Below are positions 2,631 to 30,702 of a stretch of 39,304 nt of DNA, piece after piece. Location: positions 1-39,304 of the forward strand of contig SFNW01000004.1 in NCBI GenBank assembly GCA_004554105.1, in the 5' to 3' direction. Source of the DNA: Clostridiales bacterium (GTDB lineage: Bacteria > Bacillota > Clostridia > Oscillospirales > CAG-272). The notes under the pieces were generated by a model. The model had not been told where the DNA came from, searched no databases, and saw nothing but the letters and a program-made list of their open reading frames with translations. Both the position numbers and the translations under genes were made by a program. How positions within the stretch are numbered: position 1 is the first letter of the stretch; the number at the start of each line of letters is the position of its first letter.

Positions 2631-3456
2631 TCACAGACCGAGGTCGCGTTTGGTAAAGGTATATGCGGCATTGCAGAAGCGGCAGGAAAGCTCGAGTTCC
2701 TCGGGCTTGCCCTCCGCGACCTGCTCGGCAAACATTTCTTCGAGGTCGCGCCGCCCGACCGAAAGAAGCGCGCGCTTCATGCGGTCGCGCGAGCAGTTGC
2801 AGCGATAGTCGACGTCGAGCGTGTCAAAGAGGTCGTATTCGATGCCGCGAAGCGCGATGTCGGCGATGTCGGAAAGGCTCTTGCCCTCGTCAAACAGGTG
2901 CGACAGCCCCGTGAGCGACGCGGCGTTTTCCTCGAGCTTTGCAATCACGCTCTCGTCGGCAAACGGCAGAAGCTGCACCAGCACGCCGCCCGCCGCGTCC
3001 CGCCACGTCCTCTGCAATCTCGCCGCTGCGCAGCTCGACCGTGCCGATGTGCGGCTCAGCCTGTCCGCATTCGCGGATAACGGTCAGTCTGCCGCGCCCG
3101 ACCGCACCGCCCACATCGAGCTTGCCGTCGGCGCGCACCGGCAGATGCGCCATGGGGTTTTCGATATAGCACTTTGCGTTGCCGTAGTAGTCGCCGACCG
3201 CAATCAATTTGCCGATACAGCCGTCGCCCGCAACGGTCAGGCTGACCGTGTCCTGCTTCTCGCCGCACATCGAGCCGAGAATCGACGCCGCCGTCAAAAG
3301 TCTCCCCGCGGCGGCGGTCGCCGTGGGCGCGGTCGAATGAATTTTCCGCATTTCTTCGACCATTGCGGTCGAGTTGATGACATGAATCCGCGCACTGCCG
3401 TCGTGCGTCATCGCGCGCAGCATCTGCGCCTTCTGTTTATTCGTCGTATTTTCCAT
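2631..3456 (-). pseudogene. hslO: Hsp33 redox-regulated chaperone, disrupted by an out-of-frame internal deletion
   Basis: Two overlapping ORFs lie in different frames. ORF 2890..3456 gives the Hsp33 N-domain (MENTT..GTVELRSGEIAEDVA, then nonsense). ORF 2631..3017 gives the C-terminal part (AAGGVLVQLLPF..CNCSRDR..CRFCN zinc centre). The junction is at about 2994-3003. The conserved YY..SEQ.PS..GVLV segment (about 20-25 aa in E. coli and B. subtilis Hsp33) is missing from both frames. A GAGGA RBS precedes ATG 3456. Confidence 0.6.
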
Positions 3457-3497: not shown

Positions 3498-3659
3498 GCC
3501 TTCCCCCTTGGGGGAAGGTGGTGCGTCAGCACCGGATGAGGGGTAGCCGTTCGCAAAGCGGCGTTGCCGCAGTCTCGACCGAAGAAAAGCAGACGGACGC
3601 GGCGCGTCCTACCCCTCATCAGTCAACTTCGTTGACAGCTTCCCCCCGAGGGGAAGCCT
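3498..3659 (+). repeat. Structured intergenic repeat, family A/B, copy A1 (about 160 nt, five hairpins)
   Basis: The element reads gccttccccc-ttg-ggggaagg / ggtgc-gtca-gcacc / long stem tgaggggta..tacccctca enclosing two small hairpins / gtcaac-ttc-gttgac / cttcccc-ccga-ggggaag. The same architecture occurs at 28130, 5968 and 12509. Confidence 0.8.
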
Positions 3660-3663
3660 GTTT

Positions 3664-4443
3664 TCATACTCGCTTTGCAACAAAATAGATGCGCTCGGTA
3701 TTGCTCGCGGGCGCGCTGCCGTCGAGGTCGCCGTGCTCGGCGACGACTTCAAAACCGCGCTGTTTCAGCATTCGCCGAATCTCGGCTGCCGTAAAGCAGG
3801 TCTCGCGCTCGTAGTCGTCGCGCCGCGTATACCTGCCGTCGGCGTCCTCTGTGAACACGCTTGTGAAAAACTCGCACAGGCGGCTTTGCGGGTCATAGAG
3901 ATTCTGCCACGCGCAGAGGACGCCCTCGTCTTCGAGCACATAGGCGTTTGTCCCGTAGATCTCCTTGAATTTATACGGCGTGTTGACGTCGAACAAAAAG
4001 AGCCCGCCCGGCTCGAGGTAATTGTGCACGAGCGAGAGCATCGTCAGAAAATCGGCTTTTCCGTCAACGTGATTGACCGAATCGAGGCAGGAAACAACCG
4101 CCTGCACCGTGCCGTACAGTTCAAACGAGAGCATATCCTGACAGAGGAACAAAATCGCGTCCGCGCGCCCCGCAGCCTCCGCCTTGCCTCTGGCGATGTC
4201 AAGCATCTCGGGCGAGCGGTCGACGCCGGTCATGTCGTAGCCGCGCCGGTCGAGCGCAAGCGTCATCGTCCCCGTGCCGCAGCAAAGGTCAAGCACGAGC
4301 TTTGCCGCAATGTCCGAATGCGCCTTGATTTGCGCGTCGATGTAGTCCGCCCACTTCTCGTAGTCGAGGTCGGCGTTCAGCCTGTCGTAGACGGCAGACA
4401 GCGCACTGTAATCATCGGTCACGGTATCCCTCCTCCGCAGCAT
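3664..4443 (-). CDS. Class I SAM-dependent methyltransferase
   Basis: ORF track, 259 aa. Motif I is LDLCCGTGTMTLALDRRGYDMTGVDRSPEML, in a typical Methyltransf_11/25-like layout. Confidence 0.85.
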   Translation of the reverse strand: MLRRRDTVTDDYSALSAVYDRLNADLDYEKWADYIDAQIKAHSDIAAKLVLDLCCGTGTMTLALDRRGYDMTGVDRSPEMLDIARGKAEAAGRADAILFLCQDMLSFELYGTVQAVVSCLDSVNHVDGKADFLTMLSLVHNYLEPGGLFLFDVNTPYKFKEIYGTNAYVLEDEGVLCAWQNLYDPQSRLCEFFTSVFTEDADGRYTRRDDYERETCFTAAEIRRMLKQRGFEVVAEHGDLDGSAPASNTERIYFVAKRV

Positions 4444-4553: not shown

Positions 4554-4582
4554 TTGAATTTCCAAAGCGGTTGTGCTATATT
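4554..4582 (+). promoter_or_regulatory. Sigma-A-type promoter for pgk
   Basis: TTGAAT (4554-4559), 17-nt spacer, TATATT (4577-4582), in an AT-rich divergent spacer 45 nt upstream of the pgk ATG. Confidence 0.5.
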
Positions 4583-4626
4583 GTTATGTGGATAATCAGG
4601 AAATTTATATAAAAGGAGTGTCTGTT

Positions 4627-5934
4627 ATGTACAACAAGAAAACCATTGAGGACGTCGAAGTCAAGGGCAAGAGAGTCCTTGTCCGCTGCGATTTCAACGT
4701 CCCGCTCAAGGACGGCAAAATCACCAGTGACAAGCGTATCGTTGCGGCGCTGCCGACCATTGAGTATCTGCTGAACCACGGCGCAAAGGTTATTCTCTGC
4801 TCCCACATGGGTAAGCCGCACGCCATCTTCACCGAGGGTTTCGGTCTCGACAAGAAAGAAAAGAAGAAGATTGAGGAACTGCCCGAGGCAGAGCAGGCAG
4901 CCGCAAAGGCAGAGCTGCTGGAAAAAGCAAAGAAGAACGACCCCGTCAAGTTCACGCTGAAGCCGGTTGCCGACCGCTTGAATGAGCTGCTCGGCGGCAA
5001 GGTCGCTTTCGCCGCCGACATCGTCGGCGAGGACGCCAAGGCAAAGGCAGCCGCTCTCAAGGAGGGTGAGGCGCTTCTGCTCGAGAATGTCCGCTTTGAC
5101 GCGCGCGAGACCAAGAACGACCCCGCGTTCTCCAAGGAGCTGGCTTCGCTTGCCGATGTTTACGTCAACGACGCGTTCGGCACTGCGCACCGCGCACACG
5201 CTTCGACCGCGGGCGTTGCCGCTTACCTCCCCGCTGTCTGCGGCTACCTGATTCAGAAGGAAATCGGCATTATGGGCAAGGCACTTTCCAACCCCGAGCG
5301 TCCGTTCGTCGCGATTCTCGGCGGCGCGAAGGTCTCCGATAAGCTCAATGTCATCAACAACCTGCTCACCAAGGTCGACACGCTCATCATCGGCGGCGGC
5401 ATGGCGTACACCTTCCTCGCAGCCAAGGGCTACGGCGTCGGCACTTCTCTGCTCGACAGCGAGAAGATTGACTACTGCAAGGACATGATGAAGAAGGCGG
5501 AAGAAAAGGGCGTCAAGCTCCTGCTCCCCGTCGACACCACGATTGCGAAGGACTTCCCCGACCCGATTGACGCCGCAATCGAGACCGAGATTGTTCCCTC
5601 AAACGAAATTCCCGCAGACCGCATGGGTCTCGACATCGGCACAAAGACGATGGAGCTCTATGCCGACGCGGTCAAGAGCGCAAAGACGGTCGTCTGGAAC
5701 GGCCCGATGGGCGTATTTGAGAACCCGATTCTCGCAAAGGGCACGATTGCGGTTGCCAAGGCACTTGCCGAGAGCAGCGCGACGACCATCGTCGGCGGCG
5801 GCGACAGCGCGGCTGCCTGCGAGCAGCTCGGCTTTGCCGATAAGATCACCCACATTTCGACCGGCGGCGGCGCATCGCTCGAATTCCTCGAAGGACTCGA
5901 GCTGCCCGGCATCGCTTGCCTCGAAGACAAATAA
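4627..5934 (+). CDS. pgk: Phosphoglycerate kinase (with about 40-aa Lys/Glu-rich insertion)
   Basis: The ORF track frame starts at 4573, but the start is moved to ATG 4627, which is preceded by AAAGGAG. Diagnostic sequence: [26 protein letters not shown].., [34 protein letters not shown]. Confidence 0.95.
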
Positions 5935-5967: not shown

Positions 5968-6076
5968 GCCTCCCTCTTTGAGGGAGGTGGCACGCGGAGC
6001 GTGACGGAAGGAGTAACCATACGCAATGAAACTCCTTCAGTCGCTAACGCGACAGCTCCCTCTCGGAGGGAGCCTT
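5968..6076 (+). repeat. Structured intergenic repeat, family A/B, copy B1 (about 110 nt)
   Basis: The element reads gcctccctc-ttt-gagggagg / cacgc-gga-gcgtg / ggaaggagt..actccttc / gtcgc-taac-gcgac / ctccctc-tcg-gagggag. It lies inside the pgk-tpiA spacer. Confidence 0.8.
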
Positions 6077-6186: not shown

Positions 6187-6948
6187 ATGAAAATGAGAAG
6201 AAAAGTTATTGCGGGCAACTGGAAAATGAACCAGACCCCGAACGCGGCGCGTGAATTTGTCAAGGCGCTTGCCCCCATGGTCGCGGATAAAACGAACTGT
6301 GACGTCGTCCTCTGCGTTCCCTTTGTCGACATTTGGGTCGCTGCCGAGGCGGCACGCGGCACGAATATCAAAATCGGCGCGCAGAACGTCCACTTCAAGG
6401 AGAGCGGTGCATACACCGGCGAAATCAGCGCGGATATGCTGACCGAAGTCGGCGCGGAATACGTCATCATCGGACACAGCGAGCGCAGACAGTATTTCGG
6501 CGAGACCGACGAGACAGTCAATCTGCGCACCAAGACCGCGCTTGCCAAGGGACTCAAGGTTATCCTCTGCGTCGGCGAGCTGCTCGAAGCAAGACAGGCG
6601 GGCATCACCGACGAGGTGGTCGCCATGCAGATCAAGCTCGACCTTGCGGGCATCGAAAAGAAGGACCTCGCCAATATCATCATCGCCTATGAGCCGGTTT
6701 GGGCAATCGGCACGGGTCTGACGGCAACGCCCGAGCAGGCGGACGAGGTCTGCGGACTCATTCGCGAGACCATCGGCAAGCTCTACGGCACGGATGCAGC
6801 CGAAGCGATGATCATTCAGTACGGCGGCTCGATGAACGACAAGAACGCCGCAGAACTGCTGAGCAAGCCGAATGTAGACGGCGGACTCATCGGCGGCGCT
6901 TCGCTCAAGACCGACGCGTTTACCGCTATCGTCACCGCCGCACAGTAA
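6187..6948 (+). CDS. tpiA: Triosephosphate isomerase
   Basis: ORF track, 253 aa. Diagnostic sequence: VIAGNWKMN, IIGHSERR, AYEPVWAIGTG, GGASL. No clear Shine-Dalgarno sequence precedes ATG 6187 or ATG 6193. Confidence 0.95.
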   Translation: MKMRRKVIAGNWKMNQTPNAAREFVKALAPMVADKTNCDVVLCVPFVDIWVAAEAARGTNIKIGAQNVHFKESGAYTGEISADMLTEVGAEYVIIGHSERRQYFGETDETVNLRTKTALAKGLKVILCVGELLEARQAGITDEVVAMQIKLDLAGIEKKDLANIIIAYEPVWAIGTGLTATPEQADEVCGLIRETIGKLYGTDAAEAMIIQYGGSMNDKNAAELLSKPNVDGGLIGGASLKTDAFTAIVTAAQ

Positions 6949-11874: not shown

Positions 11875-12333
11875 ATGCTTGCAATCGGCGATAAAGCACC
11901 GCAGTTTACCTTAAGTGACAAGGACGGAAACCCCGTTTCGCTGTCGGATTTTCTCGGCAAGCGCGTCGTCCTCTATTTTTACCCGAAGGACAACACACCC
12001 GGCTGTACGCGGCAGGCGTGCGCCTTTGCGCAGAACTATCGGGCGTTTCGGGATAAGGGCGTCGAGGTCATCGGCGTCAGCCGGGACAGTGCCGCGTCGC
12101 ACACAAAGTTTGCGGAAAAGTACGACCTGCCCTTTATCCTGCTGTCCGACCCCGAGTTGACCGCAATTCAAGCCTACGGCGTCTGGCAGGAAAAGAAGCT
12201 GTACGGCAAAGTCAGCATGGGCGTGGTGCGCACCACGTTCCTCATCGACGCAGAGGGCAAAATCGAGAAAGTCATGCCCAAAGTCAAGCCCGACACCAAC
12301 GCCGCAGAGATTCTCGCTGCGCTGAATGTATAG
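11875..12333 (+). CDS. bcp: Thioredoxin-dependent thiol peroxidase (peroxiredoxin Bcp)
   Basis: ORF track, 152 aa. Diagnostic sequence: YFYPKDNTPGCTRQAC. Confidence 0.9.
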   Translation: MLAIGDKAPQFTLSDKDGNPVSLSDFLGKRVVLYFYPKDNTPGCTRQACAFAQNYRAFRDKGVEVIGVSRDSAASHTKFAEKYDLPFILLSDPELTAIQAYGVWQEKKLYGKVSMGVVRTTFLIDAEGKIEKVMPKVKPDTNAAEILAALNV

Positions 12334-12350: not shown

Positions 12351-12424
12351 TCGGGGCTTTGCCCCGAACCCCACACAAGGGGCTTTTTTGTAAAAAAGCC
12401 CCTTGTGAATCCGCAAAAAACTTT
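12351..12424 (+). repeat. Family D repeat, full-length copy D1
   Basis: The element reads tcggggc-ttt-gccccga accccacac aaggggcttttttgtaaaaaagcccctt gtgaatccgcaaaaaactt. It is near-identical to 30529-30600 and to the reverse complement of 25544-25614. Confidence 0.75.
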
Positions 12425-12466
12425 TAGGAAAAGGGGTAAGAACACGCCGCCGCTTCCAAATGCAAG

Positions 12467-12491
12467 AAAAACCGCCCGAACGGGCGGTTTT
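12467..12491 (+). terminator. Rho-independent terminator-like hairpin (first of two identical copies)
   Basis: aaaaaccgcccgaacgggcggtttt. The same hairpin occurs again at 12679-12705. Confidence 0.55.
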
Positions 12492-12508
12492 CAGGTTATG
12501 CGAAAACA

Positions 12509-12619
12509 GCCTCCCTCCTCGAGGGAGGTGGCACGACGAAGTCGTGACGGAAGGAGTTTGGCTTTGAACGCACTCCTTCAGTCGGCTCCGCCGACAGCTC
12601 CCTCGGCGAGGGAGCCTTT
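12509..12619 (+). repeat. Structured intergenic repeat, family A/B, copy B2
   Basis: The element reads gcctccctc-ctc-gagggagg / cacgac-gaa-gtcgtg / ggaaggagt..actccttc / gtcggc-tcc-gccgac / ctccctc-ggc-gagggag. Confidence 0.8.
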
Positions 12620-12678
12620 GTAAAATCGAGCTGCGGCACAAACCTTCAGCTACCTTAAAGATATATTCAAAGCAACGT

Positions 12679-12705
12679 AAAAAACCGCCCGAACGGGCGG
12701 TTTTT
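12679..12705. terminator. Bidirectional terminator hairpin (second copy), serving radC
   Basis: aaaaaaccgcccgaacgggcggttttt, with an A-run and a T-run on either side, 15 nt beyond the radC stop. Confidence 0.6.
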
Positions 12706-12719
12706 ACCTATTTTCACTT

Positions 12720-13448
12720 TTATTTTTCATAAAATGCGCTTGTCTTACCGCGCTGCCAGAACACGCCCTCGGTTTTCGAGAGCAGCGGCTCGTAGCGGTT
12801 ACCCGCCACCAGCAAATGCTCGAGAAATTCGACATTGACGCTGCGAAGGACATTTGCAATCTCCGCCGTCGTCGCGATGTCGTCCGCGGAGGGCGTCGCA
12901 CTGCCGTTCGGGTGATTGTGCGCCAACACGACCATCGAGACATTCGGGCGCAGACAATATTCAACAAGCTTGCGCGTTTCAAGCCGCACGCGGTTGACCG
13001 AGCCTTCGCCGACCTTGACCACGTCGAGCAGCCGATAGCTGTTGTCGAGCAGAACGAGATAAACCGTCTCGACCGTCACGCCGGTGTAATAGCGCACGAG
13101 CAGCTCCCCGATTTTGTTGAGGCTGTCGTACCGCTCGGTTGGCAGCGTCTCGCGCAGAGACGCGCGGTAAATTTCGGGAACGAGTTTTAACAGCGCGGCG
13201 GTATGCTCGCTGACGCCGTCAACCTGACACAACTCGTCCACCGAGGCGGAAAACACGCCCGACAGCGAGCCGAAGCGCTTGATGAGCGCGTGCGCAATCG
13301 GGTTGGTGTCGCGCTGCGGAATGGCATAAAACAAGAGCAGCTCGAGCATATTATGCTTCTCAAAGCCCGCAAGCCCCTCGCGCAGGAATCTGTCCTTCAG
13401 CCGTTTACGATGTCCGCCGTGCGGGTGTCCCGCATTTGAATTTGCCAT
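12720..13448 (-). CDS. radC: RadC-family JAB/MPN-domain protein with N-terminal HhH region
   Basis: The ORF track frame starts at 13496. The start is set at ATG 13448 (MANSNAGHPHGGHRKRLKDRF..). The JAMM-like motif is VVLAHNHPNGSATPSADD. Confidence 0.85.
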   Translation of the reverse strand: MANSNAGHPHGGHRKRLKDRFLREGLAGFEKHNMLELLLFYAIPQRDTNPIAHALIKRFGSLSGVFSASVDELCQVDGVSEHTAALLKLVPEIYRASLRETLPTERYDSLNKIGELLVRYYTGVTVETVYLVLLDNSYRLLDVVKVGEGSVNRVRLETRKLVEYCLRPNVSMVVLAHNHPNGSATPSADDIATTAEIANVLRSVNVEFLEHLLVAGNRYEPLLSKTEGVFWQRGKTSAFYEK

Positions 13449-13449
13449 A

Positions 13450-13875
13450 TCAGAGGAGTTTTTCAAAGGTCGCGGGGGTATAGACCTTGCAGTCAAACGC
13501 GCGGCTGCCGGGCGTGACTGTGGTTACACAGCCCTTGCCTATCTCCAGCGCGGGAACTTCGCCGTCGAGCAGCAGAAGTCCAACGCAGGGCTTGCCGTTC
13601 GGTCCCTCTGCAGGAAAATCGGGGCGCACCCACATATAGTCGCTGTCGCCGCCCTCTCCCTTGACCGTCAAGTAGCCGCCGACGCGATGGAAGTAGACGC
13701 GGTGCGCGTCCTCGCCGAGCGTCAGCACCTTAACCGCGTAATAGGTATCGGGCGTCTCGACGTAAAAATCGCATTTGCCACTGTCGTTTTTGCCGATGCC
13801 GAAGAGACTTGCCGCGCGGAATGCGTACCCCTTCTCCTTGCAGAGTTTTTTGATGCCGCCGAGCGAGATTGCCAT
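13450..13875 (-). CDS. Hypothetical protein (141 aa), translationally coupled to radC
   Basis: ORF track. The stop TGA (13452-13450) is 1 nt from the radC ATG, and GGGGGTG lies upstream of ATG 13875. No family was recognised and there is no TM segment. Confidence 0.55.
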   Translation of the reverse strand: MAISLGGIKKLCKEKGYAFRAASLFGIGKNDSGKCDFYVETPDTYYAVKVLTLGEDAHRVYFHRVGGYLTVKGEGGDSDYMWVRPDFPAEGPNGKPCVGLLLLDGEVPALEIGKGCVTTVTPGSRAFDCKVYTPATFEKLL

Positions 13876-13955: not shown

Positions 13956-13981
13956 GAGTACGTCAAAACCGCACATAAAGC

Positions 13982-14006
13982 AAAAACCTCGCCGAGGCGA
14001 GGTTTT
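13982..14006 (-). terminator. Terminator downstream of tRNA-Thr
   Basis: aaaaa-cctcgc-cgag-gcgagg-tttt. On the minus strand the stem is followed by tttttgcttt. Confidence 0.6.
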
Positions 14007-14010
14007 CGGT

Positions 14011-14086
14011 TGGAGCTGGTAGCCGGACTTGAACCGGCGACCTGTTGATTACGAATCAACTGCTCTACCAACTGAGCCATACCAGC
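14011..14086 (-). tRNA. tRNA-Thr (anticodon CGU), CCA encoded
   Basis: The reverse complement folds as a cloverleaf: GCTGGTA-TG-GCTC-AGTTGGTA-GAGC-A-GTTGA-TTCGTAA-TCAAC-AGGTC-GCCGG-TTCAAGT-CCGGC-TACCAGC-T-CCA. Confidence 0.95.
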
Positions 14087-18537: not shown

Positions 18538-18569
18538 GGGGGAAACTTTCGTGTACGAAAGTTTCCCCC
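18538..18569 (-). terminator. Perfect 14-bp palindromic hairpin, likely terminator of the minus-strand macro/SIR2 transcript
   Basis: gggggaaactttcg-tgta-cgaaagtttccccc. On the minus strand it is followed by the T-rich (TTTA)n run. Confidence 0.55.
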
Positions 18570-18633
18570 GAACCCCTTTCAAAGGACTTTGAAAAAAGGA
18601 AATCGGCTCGTTCCGAGTTAAGCGGAAGTGCCG

Positions 18634-18696
18634 AAAGGCGGTCGGGAAACCGACCGCCTTTTTGTTGGGATAGCCCCTCAAAATCCGCAAAAACTT
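18634..18696 (+). repeat. Left copy of the direct repeat bracketing the SIR2/macro islet (terminator hairpin plus short family D tail)
   Basis: aaaggcggtcgggaaaccgaccgcctttttgttgggat..cccctcaaaatccgcaaaaactt. Compare with 21600-21689. Confidence 0.6.
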
Positions 18697-21599: not shown

Positions 21600-21689
21600 A
21601 AAAGGCGGTCGGAAAATCCGATCGCCTTTTTTGTTGGAATGCAAATTGCGGGGCGTTGCCCCGCCCCTTCGAAACCCGCAAAAAACTTT
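21600..21689 (+). repeat. Right copy of the direct repeat bracketing the SIR2/macro islet (terminator hairpin plus family D tail D3)
   Basis: aaaaggcggtcggaaaatccgatcgccttttttgttggaat..gcggggcgttgccccgccccttcgaaacccgcaaaaaacttt. Confidence 0.6.
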
Positions 21690-25455: not shown

Positions 25456-25470
25456 AGTCATAAACTACAG

Positions 25471-25496
25471 AAAAAACCGCCCGAAGGCGGTTTTTT
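25471..25496. terminator. Bidirectional terminator between pdxK and the metal ATPase
   Basis: aaaaaaccgcc-cgaa-ggcggtttttt. Confidence 0.6.
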
Positions 25497-25543
25497 CCTT
25501 GTTCTAAGCAACGAGACGGCGGGAGCAAGCCCCCGTTTTCCCG

Positions 25544-28010: not shown

Positions 28011-28073
28011 CGTTATGATACAATACCGCCCTGCGTTTGTCAATAGGGTAAGCAAAAATAATTTGCGAAATGC

Positions 28074-28104
28074 AAAAAAAAAGCCGCCGAACGGCGGCTT
28101 TTTC
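28074..28104 (-). terminator. Strong terminator ending the yabP..fumarase-alpha transcript
   Basis: aaaaaaaa-agccgcc-gaac-ggcggct-tttt. On the minus strand the stem is followed by a T8 run. Confidence 0.65.
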
Positions 28105-28129
28105 GTGTAGATAAAATTCGGGCAGATTT

Positions 28130-28293
28130 GCCTTCCCCCTTGGGGGAAGGTGGTGCGAAGCACCGGATGAGGGGTAGCCATTCGCAGAATGGCGTCGCGG
28201 CGGTTATCTTGGAACTTCTTTGACGGGCACTTGCGTGCCCTACCCCTCGTTCCCCGCCTATGGCGGTACCTTTTCCCCCAAGGGGGAAGGCTT
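28130..28293 (+). repeat. Structured intergenic repeat, family A/B, copy A2
   Basis: The element reads gccttccccc-ttg-ggggaagg / ggtgc-gaa-gcacc / tgaggggta..tacccctc / ccgcc-tat-ggcgg / ccttttccccc-aa-gggggaagg. The 5' 50 nt are almost identical to copy A1. Confidence 0.8.
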
Positions 28294-28354: not shown

Positions 28355-29227
28355 TTATATCTCCACCTCCGCGTGGCGGAGAACATGGCAGTTGATGTTG
28401 ACCGCGACGGGCAGCCCCGCAATGTGCGTCGGATAGGCGGCGACGGCGACCGAAAGCGCCGTGGTGTCGCCCGAAAAGCCCTGCGGACCGATGCCGGTGC
28501 GGTTGATTTCGTCGAGCAGACGCGCTTCCAGCGCGGCGTAGCGCGGGTCGGGATTGTGCGTCCCGACAGGGCGCGTGAAGCACTCCTTGGCGAGCGACGC
28601 GCATTTCTCAAAGTCGCCGCCGATGCCGACGCCGACCGAAATCGGCGGGCAGGGGTCTGCGCCCGCGCGCTCGACCGTGTCGACGACAAAGCGCACGATG
28701 TCGTCCTCGGTCGCGGCGGGGGTGAACATCTTCAGCGCGCTCTTGTTCTCACTGCCAAAGCCCTTGGGCAGCGCGACGATGCGGACGCGGTCGCCCGAAA
28801 CCGCGCGAATATGCAGGACGGCAGGCGTGTTGTCGTTTGTATTGCGGCGGTCGTAGAGCGGGTCGGAGACCACCGACAGGCGCAGCGCACCGTCGACATA
28901 GGCACGGCGCACGCCGCGGTCGACCGCCTCGGCAACATTGCCGAGGATATGCGCGTCCTCGCCGACATAGAGAAAGACCACCGCCATGCCGGTGTCCTGG
29001 CAAATCGGCACGTCAATCTCCTTTGCCGCCTCGACGTTGTCGACAAGGCGATGCAGCACGCTTTTGGCAAGCGGGCAGCGCTCCTTTTCTGCCGCGCAGG
29101 CGATGCAGTCGGTCACGTCGCTCGTCAGGGTATAATTTGCCTTGACAAACAGTTCCGCCACTGCGTCCTCAATGCGCTTCGCCTCAATCAGGCGAAGCGT
29201 TTTTCCGTCAACCGTAATTCTGTCCAT
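28355..29227 (-). CDS. Class I (Fe-S) fumarate hydratase / L(+)-tartrate dehydratase alpha subunit
   Basis: ORF track, 290 aa. Diagnostic sequence: CQDTGMAVVFLYVG, GFGSENKS, PCPPISVGVGIGG. The start is 2 nt after the divIC-like stop. Confidence 0.85.
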   Translation of the reverse strand: MDRITVDGKTLRLIEAKRIEDAVAELFVKANYTLTSDVTDCIACAAEKERCPLAKSVLHRLVDNVEAAKEIDVPICQDTGMAVVFLYVGEDAHILGNVAEAVDRGVRRAYVDGALRLSVVSDPLYDRRNTNDNTPAVLHIRAVSGDRVRIVALPKGFGSENKSALKMFTPAATEDDIVRFVVDTVERAGADPCPPISVGVGIGGDFEKCASLAKECFTRPVGTHNPDPRYAALEARLLDEINRTGIGPQGFSGDTTALSVAVAAYPTHIAGLPVAVNINCHVLRHAEVEI

Positions 29228-30528: not shown

Positions 30529-30600
30529 GCGGGGCTCTGCCCCGCCCCCGCTCAAGGGGCTTTTTTGTAAAAAAGCCCCTTGAGAATCCGCAAAAAACTT
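30529..30600 (+). repeat. Family D repeat, full-length copy D6
   Basis: gcggggctctgccccgcccccgctcaaggggcttttttgtaaaaaagccccttgagaatccgcaaaaaactt. Confidence 0.75.
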
Positions 30601-30628
30601 CAAGAATGGGACAGACCGTCGGGGTCGA

Positions 30629-30702
30629 GGGACGGACCGTCGAGGACGCCGGTCCCTACGGATTTGTGTGCGGGGCGGCGGGAGCAAGCCCCCGCCCTAC
30701 GG
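30629..30702 (+). repeat. Two tandem family E units (GC hairpin ending in CCCTACGG)
   Basis: Unit 1 is gggacggaccgtcgaggacgccggtccctacgg and unit 2 is gcggggcggcgggagcaagcccccgccctacgg. The core ggcgggagcaagcccccg recurs at 25518-25535. Confidence 0.55.

Follow-up and report, generated by a model that had tools for sequence, protein, structure and literature searches.

A modular five-hairpin DNA repeat of gut Clostridia, probably the non-coding form of a small DUF559 endonuclease cassette

Contig SFNW01000004.1 of a Clostridiales bacterium (assembly GCA_004554105.1; Oscillospirales, CAG-272) was analysed over positions 1 to 39,304, and this stretch of 39,304 nucleotides is referred to as the window. 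An intergenic element with five hairpins occurs in it four times, and the locus raises the question of what kind of element this is. An initial annotation had left it between a mobile element resembling MITEs (miniature transposable elements bounded by inverted repeats) or REP sequences and a structured RNA or single-stranded DNA element. The four copies are probably, though far from certainly, members without an open reading frame (ORF) of a palindromic modular DNA repeat family, whose coding form is a minimal cassette with a DUF559 endonuclease gene. Direct reading found the copies, two of type A and two of type B, where they had been annotated, all on the + strand and all intergenic, with every hairpin that had been named (H1 to H5):

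3498..3659, + strand: copy A1, an ORF-less A-type frame (direct read; profile matches to the left module at E=2e-4 and to the right module at E=2.6e-5)
Hairpins of A1: H1 3499-3518, H2 3520-3533, H3 3537-3545/3610-3618, H4 3622-3636, H5 3638-3657
28130..28293, + strand: copy A2, an ORF-less A-type frame (direct read)
Hairpins of A2: H1 28131-28150, H2 28152-28164 (GCGAAGC mini-hairpin), H3 28168-28176/28241-28248, H4 28254-28266, H5 28269-28291
5968..6076, + strand: copy B1, an ORF-less B-type frame (profile match to the left module at E=1.6e-8)
Hairpins of B1: H1 5969-5987, H2 5991-6003 (loop GGA in GCGGAGC), H3 6006-6014/6031-6038, H4 6040-6053, H5 6055-6073
12509..12619, + strand: copy B2, an ORF-less B-type frame (profile match to the left module at E=2.8e-10)
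Hairpins of B2: H1 12510-12528, H2 12532-12546 (C-GAA-G loop), H3 12549-12557/12572-12579, H4 12581-12595, H5 12597-12615

The order of parts is common to all four copies. The 5' half consists of G, H1 (CCTYCCYC, a loop of 2-4 nt and GRGGRAGG), TGG, the variable hairpin H2 and (A)CGGA, and it is followed by the H3 5' arm, a variable loop, the H3 3' arm, CA, H4, AGC, H5 and CC. In each copy the H5 stem is the same as the H1 stem, and the H4 stem starts with GTC and ends with GAC in three of the four (A2 has CCGCC/GGCGG). Eight perfect CT-rich hairpins of 7 bp are present in the window, exclusively at the eight element ends, against an expectation of 0.025 in a first-order Markov simulation. A profile scan of the window yielded no fifth copy, full or partial. 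Predicted folding energies are -88.5 (A1), -107 (A2), -58.8 (B1) and -61.9 (B2) kcal/mol, with z-scores of -6.3, -8.1, -5.9 and -4.6, respectively, and none of 200 shuffles was as stable. ViennaRNA statistics and length-selected sub-alignments took the place of a covariance model; MAFFT left H2, H4 and H5 out of register.

The A-type frame is the shell of a mini-cassette of ~450 bp that holds a small DUF559 (Vsr/I-Bth0305I-like) endonuclease gene in the H3 loop. The cassette consists of H1, TGG, H2, CGGATGAGGTGGAA, then ATG and a DUF559 ORF of 121 aa ending ..AACACCTCATCAGTC, H4, CAGC and H5. Gene and frame overlap at both ends: the H3 5' arm (GATGAGGTGGAA) provides a Shine-Dalgarno-like sequence immediately 5' of the ATG, and the H3 3' arm together with H4 encodes the last seven codons, the C-terminus of the protein (..NTSSVTS). 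An intact DUF559 gene of 123 aa lies entirely within the H3 stem at locus L044, and at L047 a DUF559 frame with its ATG comes directly after the left module and runs into H5, here as a pseudogene. The same layout was found in the independent contigs L202-L211, L213, L215, L216 and L220. A tblastn search detected DUF559 in 3 of the first 120 loci, and all three adjoin or overlap an element.

This arrangement recurs in the proteins themselves. A protein search with the L044 product retrieved at least 8000 clusters at E<1e-10, the best 120 homologues being 69-78% identical to the query. Among the 113 of these best 120 that have a recognisable core, 99 end in ..TS[SP].., typically ..INTSSVTS, which is the translation of ACCTCATCAGTCAC.. 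(H3 3' arm plus H4). Some DUF559 proteins are mis-called in long forms, with ..AFPLRGRCQRKLTDEVEMNKT or ..KPSPQGEGGPLAVDEVEMN at the start or ..TSSVTSWQLPLKGKPL at the end; such extensions are translated H1, H2, H3 and H5. The initial annotation had likened spurious peptides of the element to hypothetical peptides in gut Clostridia, and such read-through is indeed present in annotated proteins (AFPLRGR.., ..PSPQGEGG.. and ..LPLKGKP.. at the ends of DUF559 proteins). About 90% of the DUF559 genes run from the left to the right end, and about 8% have tails (TSSE, TSSDS) that indicate inversion, as in L044. These inverted tails fit a published analysis that drew attention independently to inverted repeats around DUF559 genes: its predicted targets of programmed inversion are enriched (odds ratio 14.3) for 'DUF559 domain-containing protein' (PMC9881135).

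By domain match and modelled fold, the cassette protein belongs to the DUF559/Vsr-like PD-(D/E)xK nuclease family. Pfam domains PF04480 and PF18741 are recorded on all listed DUF559 homologues, and PDB entry 3hrl matches the protein by sequence (E=8e-12). An AlphaFold2 model of moderate confidence (pLDDT 71) matched 3hrl best in Foldseek, then 3r3p and then 1vsr. In these model-based comparisons, the homing endonuclease I-Bth0305I (3r3p) gave TM scores of 0.65/0.80 with a root-mean-square deviation of 3.0, and Vsr (1vsr) a TM score of 0.62. Residues D54, E65, D67 and H71, in the motif VDFY..ELDGSQH, are invariant. The Foldseek matches agree with a published classification that groups VSR, DUF559 and a group I intron homing endonuclease (PMC3424549).

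In the Pfam-annotated neighbourhoods of L212 and L213, the DUF559 cassettes are single and lie among housekeeping genes. Several further features were noted around the cassettes of L202, L208 and L209. A gene of 79 aa for a '23S rRNA intervening sequence protein' (PF05635) is located just upstream of the cassette (L208 408-647, L209 348-587), a second five-hairpin element begins ~85 nt after the cassette, and in the region of L202 3656-4221, considered with L208 and L209, a reverse-transcriptase gene (RVT_1) lies ~2 kb downstream of the cassette.

The window copies are without an ORF. The ends of A1 and A2 match those of the cassette almost base for base (GCCTTCCCC..GGGGAAGGTGG, H2 and CGGATGAGG on one side; CCTCATCAGTC, H4 and CAGCTTCCCC on the other), with a 64-nt loop in place of the DUF559 gene. 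Other ORF-less copies, one in L063 and two in L090, keep GGTGGAAATG, that is, the Shine-Dalgarno-like sequence and the start codon. This retained remnant favours an origin of the ORF-less copies by internal deletion. The initial annotation was right in seeing a genuine dispersed repeat, and had missed the DUF559 mini-cassette to which the frame belongs.

The part order and junction motifs of B1 and B2 are those of the A-type, and one profile matches both types as well as the DUF559 frames. The link to DUF559 was observed for the A-type, and since no ORF-bearing B-type copy was found, for the B-type we infer it from the architecture and motifs that both types have in common. A sequence resembling an extended -10 element, TGTGTTATAAT, lies 15 nt upstream of orthologous B-type copies in three loci (L021 5140-5155, L025 and L115); these copies would form the 5' leader of the downstream gene.

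The loop interior of A1, which is the site of the DUF559 gene in ORF-bearing relatives, contains two facing REP-like units (GTAG plus a palindrome), as does that of A2:

3543..3612, inner H3 loop of A1: GTAGCCGTTCGCAAAGCGGC at 3543-3562 (+ strand) and GTAGGACGCGCCGCGTCC at 3595-3612 (- strand)
28174..28243, inner H3 loop of A2: GTAGCCATTCGCAGAATGGC at 28174-28193 (+ strand) and GTAGGGCACGCAAGTGCCC at 28225-28243 (- strand)

The inner-loop stems of A2 differ from those of A1 by paired changes. The initial annotation had seen these covarying hairpins and missed that they form a REP-like doublet. GTAGGG-hairpin repeats also adjoin many half-elements and occur solitarily in other genomes; the GTAG units form a family of their own and are nested within A1 and A2. 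One solitary unit of the same kind, GTAGGGCGGGGGCTTGCTCCCGCC, is present in the window at ~30677-30700 (- strand). Searched by tblastn with a RAYT-like protein, only L132 and L003 contained a RAYT-like gene; none was found in the window or beside a frame. In L132, the pgk-tpiA spacer contains a gene for a RAYT-like Y1 transposase with an internal GTAGGGGCGAAC..GTTCGCCC repeat, together with a B-type right-end fragment, and in L131 the same spacer contains a GTAGGG REP doublet. This spacer has thus been colonised by different repeat systems in different lineages.

In a scan with one genome per species, the exact left-end pattern was found in at least 120 genome stretches, nearly all of them from metagenome-assembled genomes of Oscillospirales and other Clostridia of gut and rumen, with a few Selenomonadales. 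From these loci, 75 complete elements of 70-349 nt were parsed, and 87 left ends have no recognisable right end nearby; a stricter parser based on H3-arm pairing recovered too few elements to be useful. Many loci have several copies and several hairpin 'alleles'; half-elements are frequent, as are mosaics with other repeats. At the start of the frame ends is GCCTYCCYC, without a GTAG head. Profiles of the left and right ends match each other in reverse complement, and in L113 the left-end pattern occurs on both strands, 246 nt apart. The two ends are thus a long, structured terminal inverted repeat of ~55 nt, in which H1, H2 and the H3 5' arm correspond to the H3 3' arm, H4 and H5. Terminal inverted repeats had been proposed from the window copies, along with an alternative closure of the whole element by its ends; in A2, B1 and B2 the minimum-energy fold does join both ends in one closing stem.

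No catalogued family that could be tested explains the five-hairpin family, in keeping with the initial annotation, which did not recognise it as a named one. At gathering score, an Rfam 15 scan of the window yielded only the tRNA, and in 18 element-rich loci the sole match was a Gut-1 RNA, which is unrelated. The best sub-threshold match in an E-value scan around A1 was whalefall-1 (RF01762) on the - strand, with 23.7 bits (E=5e-4) against a gathering score of 37. The A1 - strand has a layout like that of whalefall-1 (a CT-rich hairpin, ~22 variable nt and AGGGNNAGGAC), and whalefall-1 may be a distant relative of one end module, although this score is below the gathering score and neither the window nor the 18 loci gave a gathering-level match. 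The Gut-1 RNA (RF01706, 72 bits) is at L090 3079-3153 (- strand), between two A-type elements; we know of no function for this RNA family. B1-like DNA was not found in a plasmid collection, and a phage collection gave partial A-type matches only, in nine faecal fragments labelled 'Bacteriophage sp.' and lacking annotation. The literature searched yielded neither a description of the element nor a link between DUF559 and repeats; coverage of the literature was incomplete and an earlier description is possible.

Across the family, hairpin pairing is kept while the stem sequence varies. In an alignment of 42 elements, four pairs of H1 change on both sides (e.g., C-G in 27, U-A in 15) and no pair is broken, a G-T pair at the H1 base is invariant, and H3 shows many both-sided pair changes. 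For H2, all left modules with a 17-nt H2 segment (19 distinct sequences) were scored against one imposed structure; choosing them by length only avoids circularity. Paired cells amounted to 92.1%, against 60.7% in shuffles and 21-42% in slid controls, and the covariation score was 0.664, against 0.142 when shuffled (0/500 shuffles as high). A hairpin of at least 4 bp is present in 96% of 71 unique H2 segments and in 47% of shuffles. Eight of nine H4 15-mers are fully paired, with five different inner stems. In the orthologous copies of L021 and L025, which have the same flanks and are otherwise similar, the H4 stems are wholly different (CCCGAC/GTCGGG vs GTCAGC/GCTGAC); the hairpin modules therefore reassort between copies. 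Compensatory changes in every stem, as first annotated, thus describe the variation in part: pairing is conserved over sequence in H1 to H4, and some of the variation is wholesale module swapping rather than stepwise compensation.

The loop of H2 bears on whether the structure acts as DNA or RNA. H2 loops are mostly GNA triloops with C-G closure, with C-GNA-G in 41 of 71 unique H2 hairpins. The heptamer GCGNAGC is present in 26 of the 71 against 1.06 expected, and its reverse complement in one; it is an extraordinarily stable DNA mini-hairpin (PMC13037366, PMC3201870). H4 has the complement (TTC or TNC loops), so that on either strand the motif lies in the 5' module of that strand. Neighbouring genes could be assigned for 39 elements: in co-directional gene pairs 9 elements are sense and 7 antisense, 16 are in convergent gaps and 7 in divergent gaps. 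The loop motif and the lack of an orientation preference argue for a structure at the DNA level without a strand rule, and point to single-stranded DNA rather than RNA. Metatranscriptome contigs were sparse and of low depth, and none spans B1.

The common orientation of the copies holds for all four in the window and is no rule elsewhere: in other genomes, orientation splits 23:16 against GC skew overall and 19:9 at |skew|>0.02, the window copies belonging to the minority; against co-directional flanking genes it splits 9:7, and L071 has copies in both orientations. An orientation rule based on the replication or the transcription strand is not supported. Four of four on one strand has a chance probability of 1/8 and is unremarkable in the light of the other loci; the same-strand pattern is probably chance.

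The signs of mobility are indirect. Presence or absence of the element between lineages was observed at the pgk-tpiA spacer, which is without an element in 67 relatives. An all-vs-all BLAST of flanks gave a single filled/empty pair, diverged in sequence, in which the spacer is filled in L069 and has 24 nt at the same place in L036. Relatives of the window from a metagenome scan had TpiA identities of at most 77%, and an exact TpiA protein match led only to a contig identical to the window. Same-species contigs from four pig-gut metagenomes stop at the elements, where depth is 5-10x that of the flanks; none of them skips an element, and strain-level polymorphism was not seen. Identical DUF559 proteins occur in the partly different neighbourhoods of L213 and L214, which have the upstream flank in common. 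Typical flanks are AAAG|CC..GCC|TTT or CTTG|CC..CC|AAG, A-rich on the 5' side and T-rich on the 3' side (n=70), and the flanking triplets are reverse complementary in 11 of 70 elements (~1 expected), where they prolong the closing stem. Some copies are old, such as the orthologous ones of L021 and L025.

The DUF559-associated frame suggests a family of selfish DNA elements. The following course of events would fit it. Short copies would derive from ORF-bearing ones by internal deletion or by loop replacement, and the loop of A1 and A2 would now be occupied by the REP-like doublet. The element ends may act as hairpins in single-stranded or cruciform DNA. A Vsr-like DUF559 protein encoded elsewhere in the genome could nick these hairpin structures or their empty target, and the nicking could power their propagation in trans, in the manner proposed for RAYTs and REPINs. 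By analogy with that system, we infer that DUF559 might be the mobilising enzyme, both in nicking and in copying in trans. The window copies themselves are probably passive passengers, neutral insertions in tolerated sites (the pgk-tpiA spacer, a 3' untranslated region (UTR), an operon spacer and a convergent gap), and any effect on mRNA would be secondary.

Several observations weigh against this account. No DUF559 gene was detected by tblastn within the 39-kb window. A DUF559 search of the first ~200 loci (L001-L201, ~120 of them chosen by a left end of either type) found the gene in A-type frames only, 42 further B-type loci from viral-labelled contigs contained none, and end pairing across all loci revealed no recurrent ORF inside any B-type frame. 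Neither a target-site duplication nor a clean empty site was found in the flanks of 70 elements, the L069/L036 pair being too diverged for exact ends. Some copies have been kept at orthologous sites across species (L021/L025), and turnover may be slow. Pairing could also be upheld by palindrome correction through template switching, a process that needs no recognising protein. To our knowledge, no transposition chemistry has been described for DUF559 and no experiment ties it to these repeats.

Other explanations can be set against the same data. Cause and effect may be reversed: the palindromic repeat would be older and independent, a free-standing DUF559 gene would home into its multi-copy, near-palindromic H3 loop, and ORF-less copies would be unoccupied targets. 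Such homing would account for the fixed position of the gene in the H3 loop and its two orientations relative to slightly asymmetric ends (L047 vs L044), for B-type frames known without an ORF-bearing form and for the vast excess of ORF-less over ORF-bearing copies, and the nearest modelled fold is that of a real homing endonuclease (3r3p). We nevertheless consider it unlikely: deletion more readily explains copies in which GGTGGAAATG persists and no ORF follows, the last seven codons built from the H3 3' arm and H4 indicate close co-evolution of gene and frame, and the spread of empty frames would be left unexplained. A structured RNA, acting in transcripts as mRNA stabiliser, RNase III or other processing site, weak terminator or insulator, or translational control, with selection on RNA keeping the pairing, appears quite unlikely. 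The very stable predicted folds, covariation in H1 to H4, hairpins so palindromic that either strand folds similarly, the faint whalefall-1 resemblance and sites in an operon spacer, in a 3' UTR and just downstream of TGTGTTATAAT (L021/L025/L115) would suit an RNA, and in the coding form the H3 stem joins the ORF's 3' end to the Shine-Dalgarno-like GAGGTG and could repress translation. Against an RNA, there is no preferred orientation to the flanking genes (9 sense, 7 antisense, 16 of 39 in convergent gaps; in the window two antisense, one sense and one between terminators); orthologous spacers do not conserve the element, no Rfam family matches at gathering score, and the H2 motif is a strongly strand-asymmetric, DNA-specific GNA triloop with a C-G closing pair. 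Of the options first annotated, the MITE/REP-like or single-stranded DNA element was thus in the right neighbourhood, and the structured RNA lost ground to the H2 loop motif and the 9:7 orientation.

Mobilisation as single-stranded DNA by an HUH Y1 transposase (RAYT or TnpA), as in REP/BIME or IS200/IS605-type elements (PATE) with DUF559 as mere cargo, is very improbable in our judgement. Terminal hairpins of the same sequence on one strand, the evidence for hairpins in single-stranded DNA, the GTAG units inside A1 and A2 and beside many half-elements, and the RAYT-like genes of related genomes (L132, L003) all point in its direction. Against it, the frame ends lack the GTAG signature and have a true terminal inverted repeat, which IS200/IS605 elements lack, no frame contains or adjoins a Y1 transposase gene, the GTAG repeats belong to a family of their own with solitary members (e.g., in the L131 spacer), and no replication-strand bias was found (23:16). 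It is equally hard to see the copies as inert relics, old duplicated palindromes whose pairing is upheld by template switching at replication and gene conversion among copies. Swapped hairpin modules (H4 of L021 vs L025), common half-elements and repeat mosaics, and the missing target-site duplications are what relics might show. Yet nearly all close DUF559 homologues examined have an intact, conserved ORF in the frame, with the tail that the frame encodes retained in 99 of 113, the family is distributed patchily and by lineage, copies are locally dense (four in 39 kb), and palindrome correction alone cannot produce selection for a loop motif. ORF-less members of a DUF559-associated repeat family thus remain our preferred description of the window copies.

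In kind, the element is closest to REPIN-RAYT systems and MITEs, from which it differs in its class of enzyme and in having the start and end of the gene built into the repeat. Like REPINs (PMC3116915, PMC3337134), it is a short palindromic non-coding repeat with many intergenic copies and an excess between convergent genes, its hairpin structure, probably formed in single-stranded DNA, outweighs sequence, and a small nuclease gene of the same genome family is flanked by inverted copies of the repeat. Unlike them, it is associated with a PD-(D/E)xK, Vsr-like DUF559 protein instead of an HUH Y1 transposase, its frame ends have no GTAG head, each end consists of two hairpins and half of a third, and the gene start and stop lie inside the repeat. 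MITEs and repeats of the ERIC, Correia, BOX and bcr1 type are similarly ORF-less, intergenic, multi-copy sequences of 100-170 bp with terminal inverted repeats and long hairpins, modular or mosaic in structure and able to sit in operon transcripts, and presence or absence between lineages, a further MITE criterion, was also seen here. In contrast to these repeats, no target-site duplication was detected and there is no sequence similarity, and unlike in MITEs the coding relative (A-type only) has a 121-aa nuclease and no recognised transposase.

Homing endonucleases of the Vsr-like/EDxHD type, with I-Bth0305I as the best match to the modelled structure, offer the parallel of a small, selfish-looking gene in the loop of a structured element. 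The gene of I-Bth0305I resides in a self-splicing group I intron that interrupts the coding sequence of recA (PMC3239194), and for the 'fractured genes' family the association is with split inteins (PMC2677866); the cassette, in contrast, is intergenic, with terminal inverted repeats and abundant ORF-less copies, and its protein is without the extra N-terminal DNA-binding region. The element also resembles IS200/IS605 and PATE elements in its very small size, in similar subterminal hairpins at both ends of one strand and in its single-stranded DNA logic. IS200/IS605 elements have no terminal inverted repeat, require TnpA (Y1) and show a lagging-strand orientation bias; the present element possesses a terminal inverted repeat, and the searches revealed neither a Y1 gene in or next to a frame nor a lagging-strand bias (23:16). 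The attC sites of integrons are imperfect palindromes of 57-141 nt that conserve structure over sequence, are recombined as folded single-stranded DNA and bound small gene cassettes. The present element is likewise a structure-conserved imperfect palindrome bounding a small gene cassette, but its copies are dispersed among housekeeping genes, with no integrase or cassette array seen and no R/L core consensus recognised by eye (no formal scan was made).

A more far-reaching proposal, which we advance tentatively and with more doubt than belief, is that DUF559 in Clostridia could be the engine of an unrecognised class of minimal mobile elements: a ~450-bp cassette whose hairpin ends supply the Shine-Dalgarno-like sequence, the start context and the C-terminus, and whose product, a nickase acting on hairpins or mismatches (e.g., the G-T at the base of H1), would spread the cassette and swarms of ORF-less copies. 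In function, such a system would parallel REPIN-RAYT, with a PD-(D/E)xK nuclease in the place of the HUH enzyme. If true, DDE and HUH transposases would not be the only enzymes behind bacterial repeat families, and DNA mini-hairpins (GCGNAGC) would serve as recognition elements in a natural system. DUF559 is a huge family with a solved structure (3hrl) and no known role, for which the link provides a testable hypothesis, namely that it may serve as nuclease to a very small selfish cassette, one that has non-autonomous offspring. The frames are also abundant in gut and rumen Clostridia, where they break metagenome assemblies and create spurious peptides and N- or C-terminal extensions, and a model of the family would clean up both assembly breaks and protein calls.

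The genes adjoining the window copies are ordinary in kind. A1 lies between a methyltransferase gene (3664-4443, - strand) and hsp33 (2890-3456, - strand) and is antisense to both, and B1 is in sense orientation in the spacer between pgk (4573-5934, + strand) and tpiA (6187-6948, + strand). A2 is located, in antisense orientation, between the stop codon of a fumarate hydratase gene (28355-29227, - strand) and its terminator (~28075-28105), its neighbour genes being fumarate hydratase and arsR. These three copies agree with the operon spacers and 3' UTRs named in the initial annotation; B2 does not, as it sits between the convergent genes bcp/AhpC (11875-12333, + strand) and radC (12720-13496, - strand), bracketed by terminator hairpins at 12467-12492 and 12680-12705.

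A near-identical terminator hairpin, AAAAACCGCCCGAACGGGCGGTTTT, is found on both sides of B2 (12458-12492 and 12671-12705) and also at 25463-25497, 28068-28102 and 13973-14007; one copy lies 28 nt left of A2. These hairpins may simply be a family of ordinary terminators, or they may mark a neighbourhood favoured for insertion. The hsp33 ORF next to A1 spans only positions 2-140 of the 273-position Pfam profile, and same-species contigs from the four pig-gut metagenomes have 74 extra letters between window positions 2997 and 2998; the window hsp33 therefore seems to be broken by a 74-nt deletion. A second intergenic repeat family occurs at 12358-12424, 18562-18693, 21663-21689 and 30535-30601. 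It is a bidirectional, terminator-like palindrome, CCCC..CAAGGGGCTTTTTTGTAAAAAAGCCCCTTG, followed by a conserved GAATCCGCAAAAAACTT, and two of its copies are 95% identical over 55 nt. The tRNA gene of the window (14014-14086, - strand; 73.7 bits) has at 14125-14096 a promoter-like site, a perfect TTGACA-18-TATAAT, and is followed by a terminator-like hairpin at 14008-13981.

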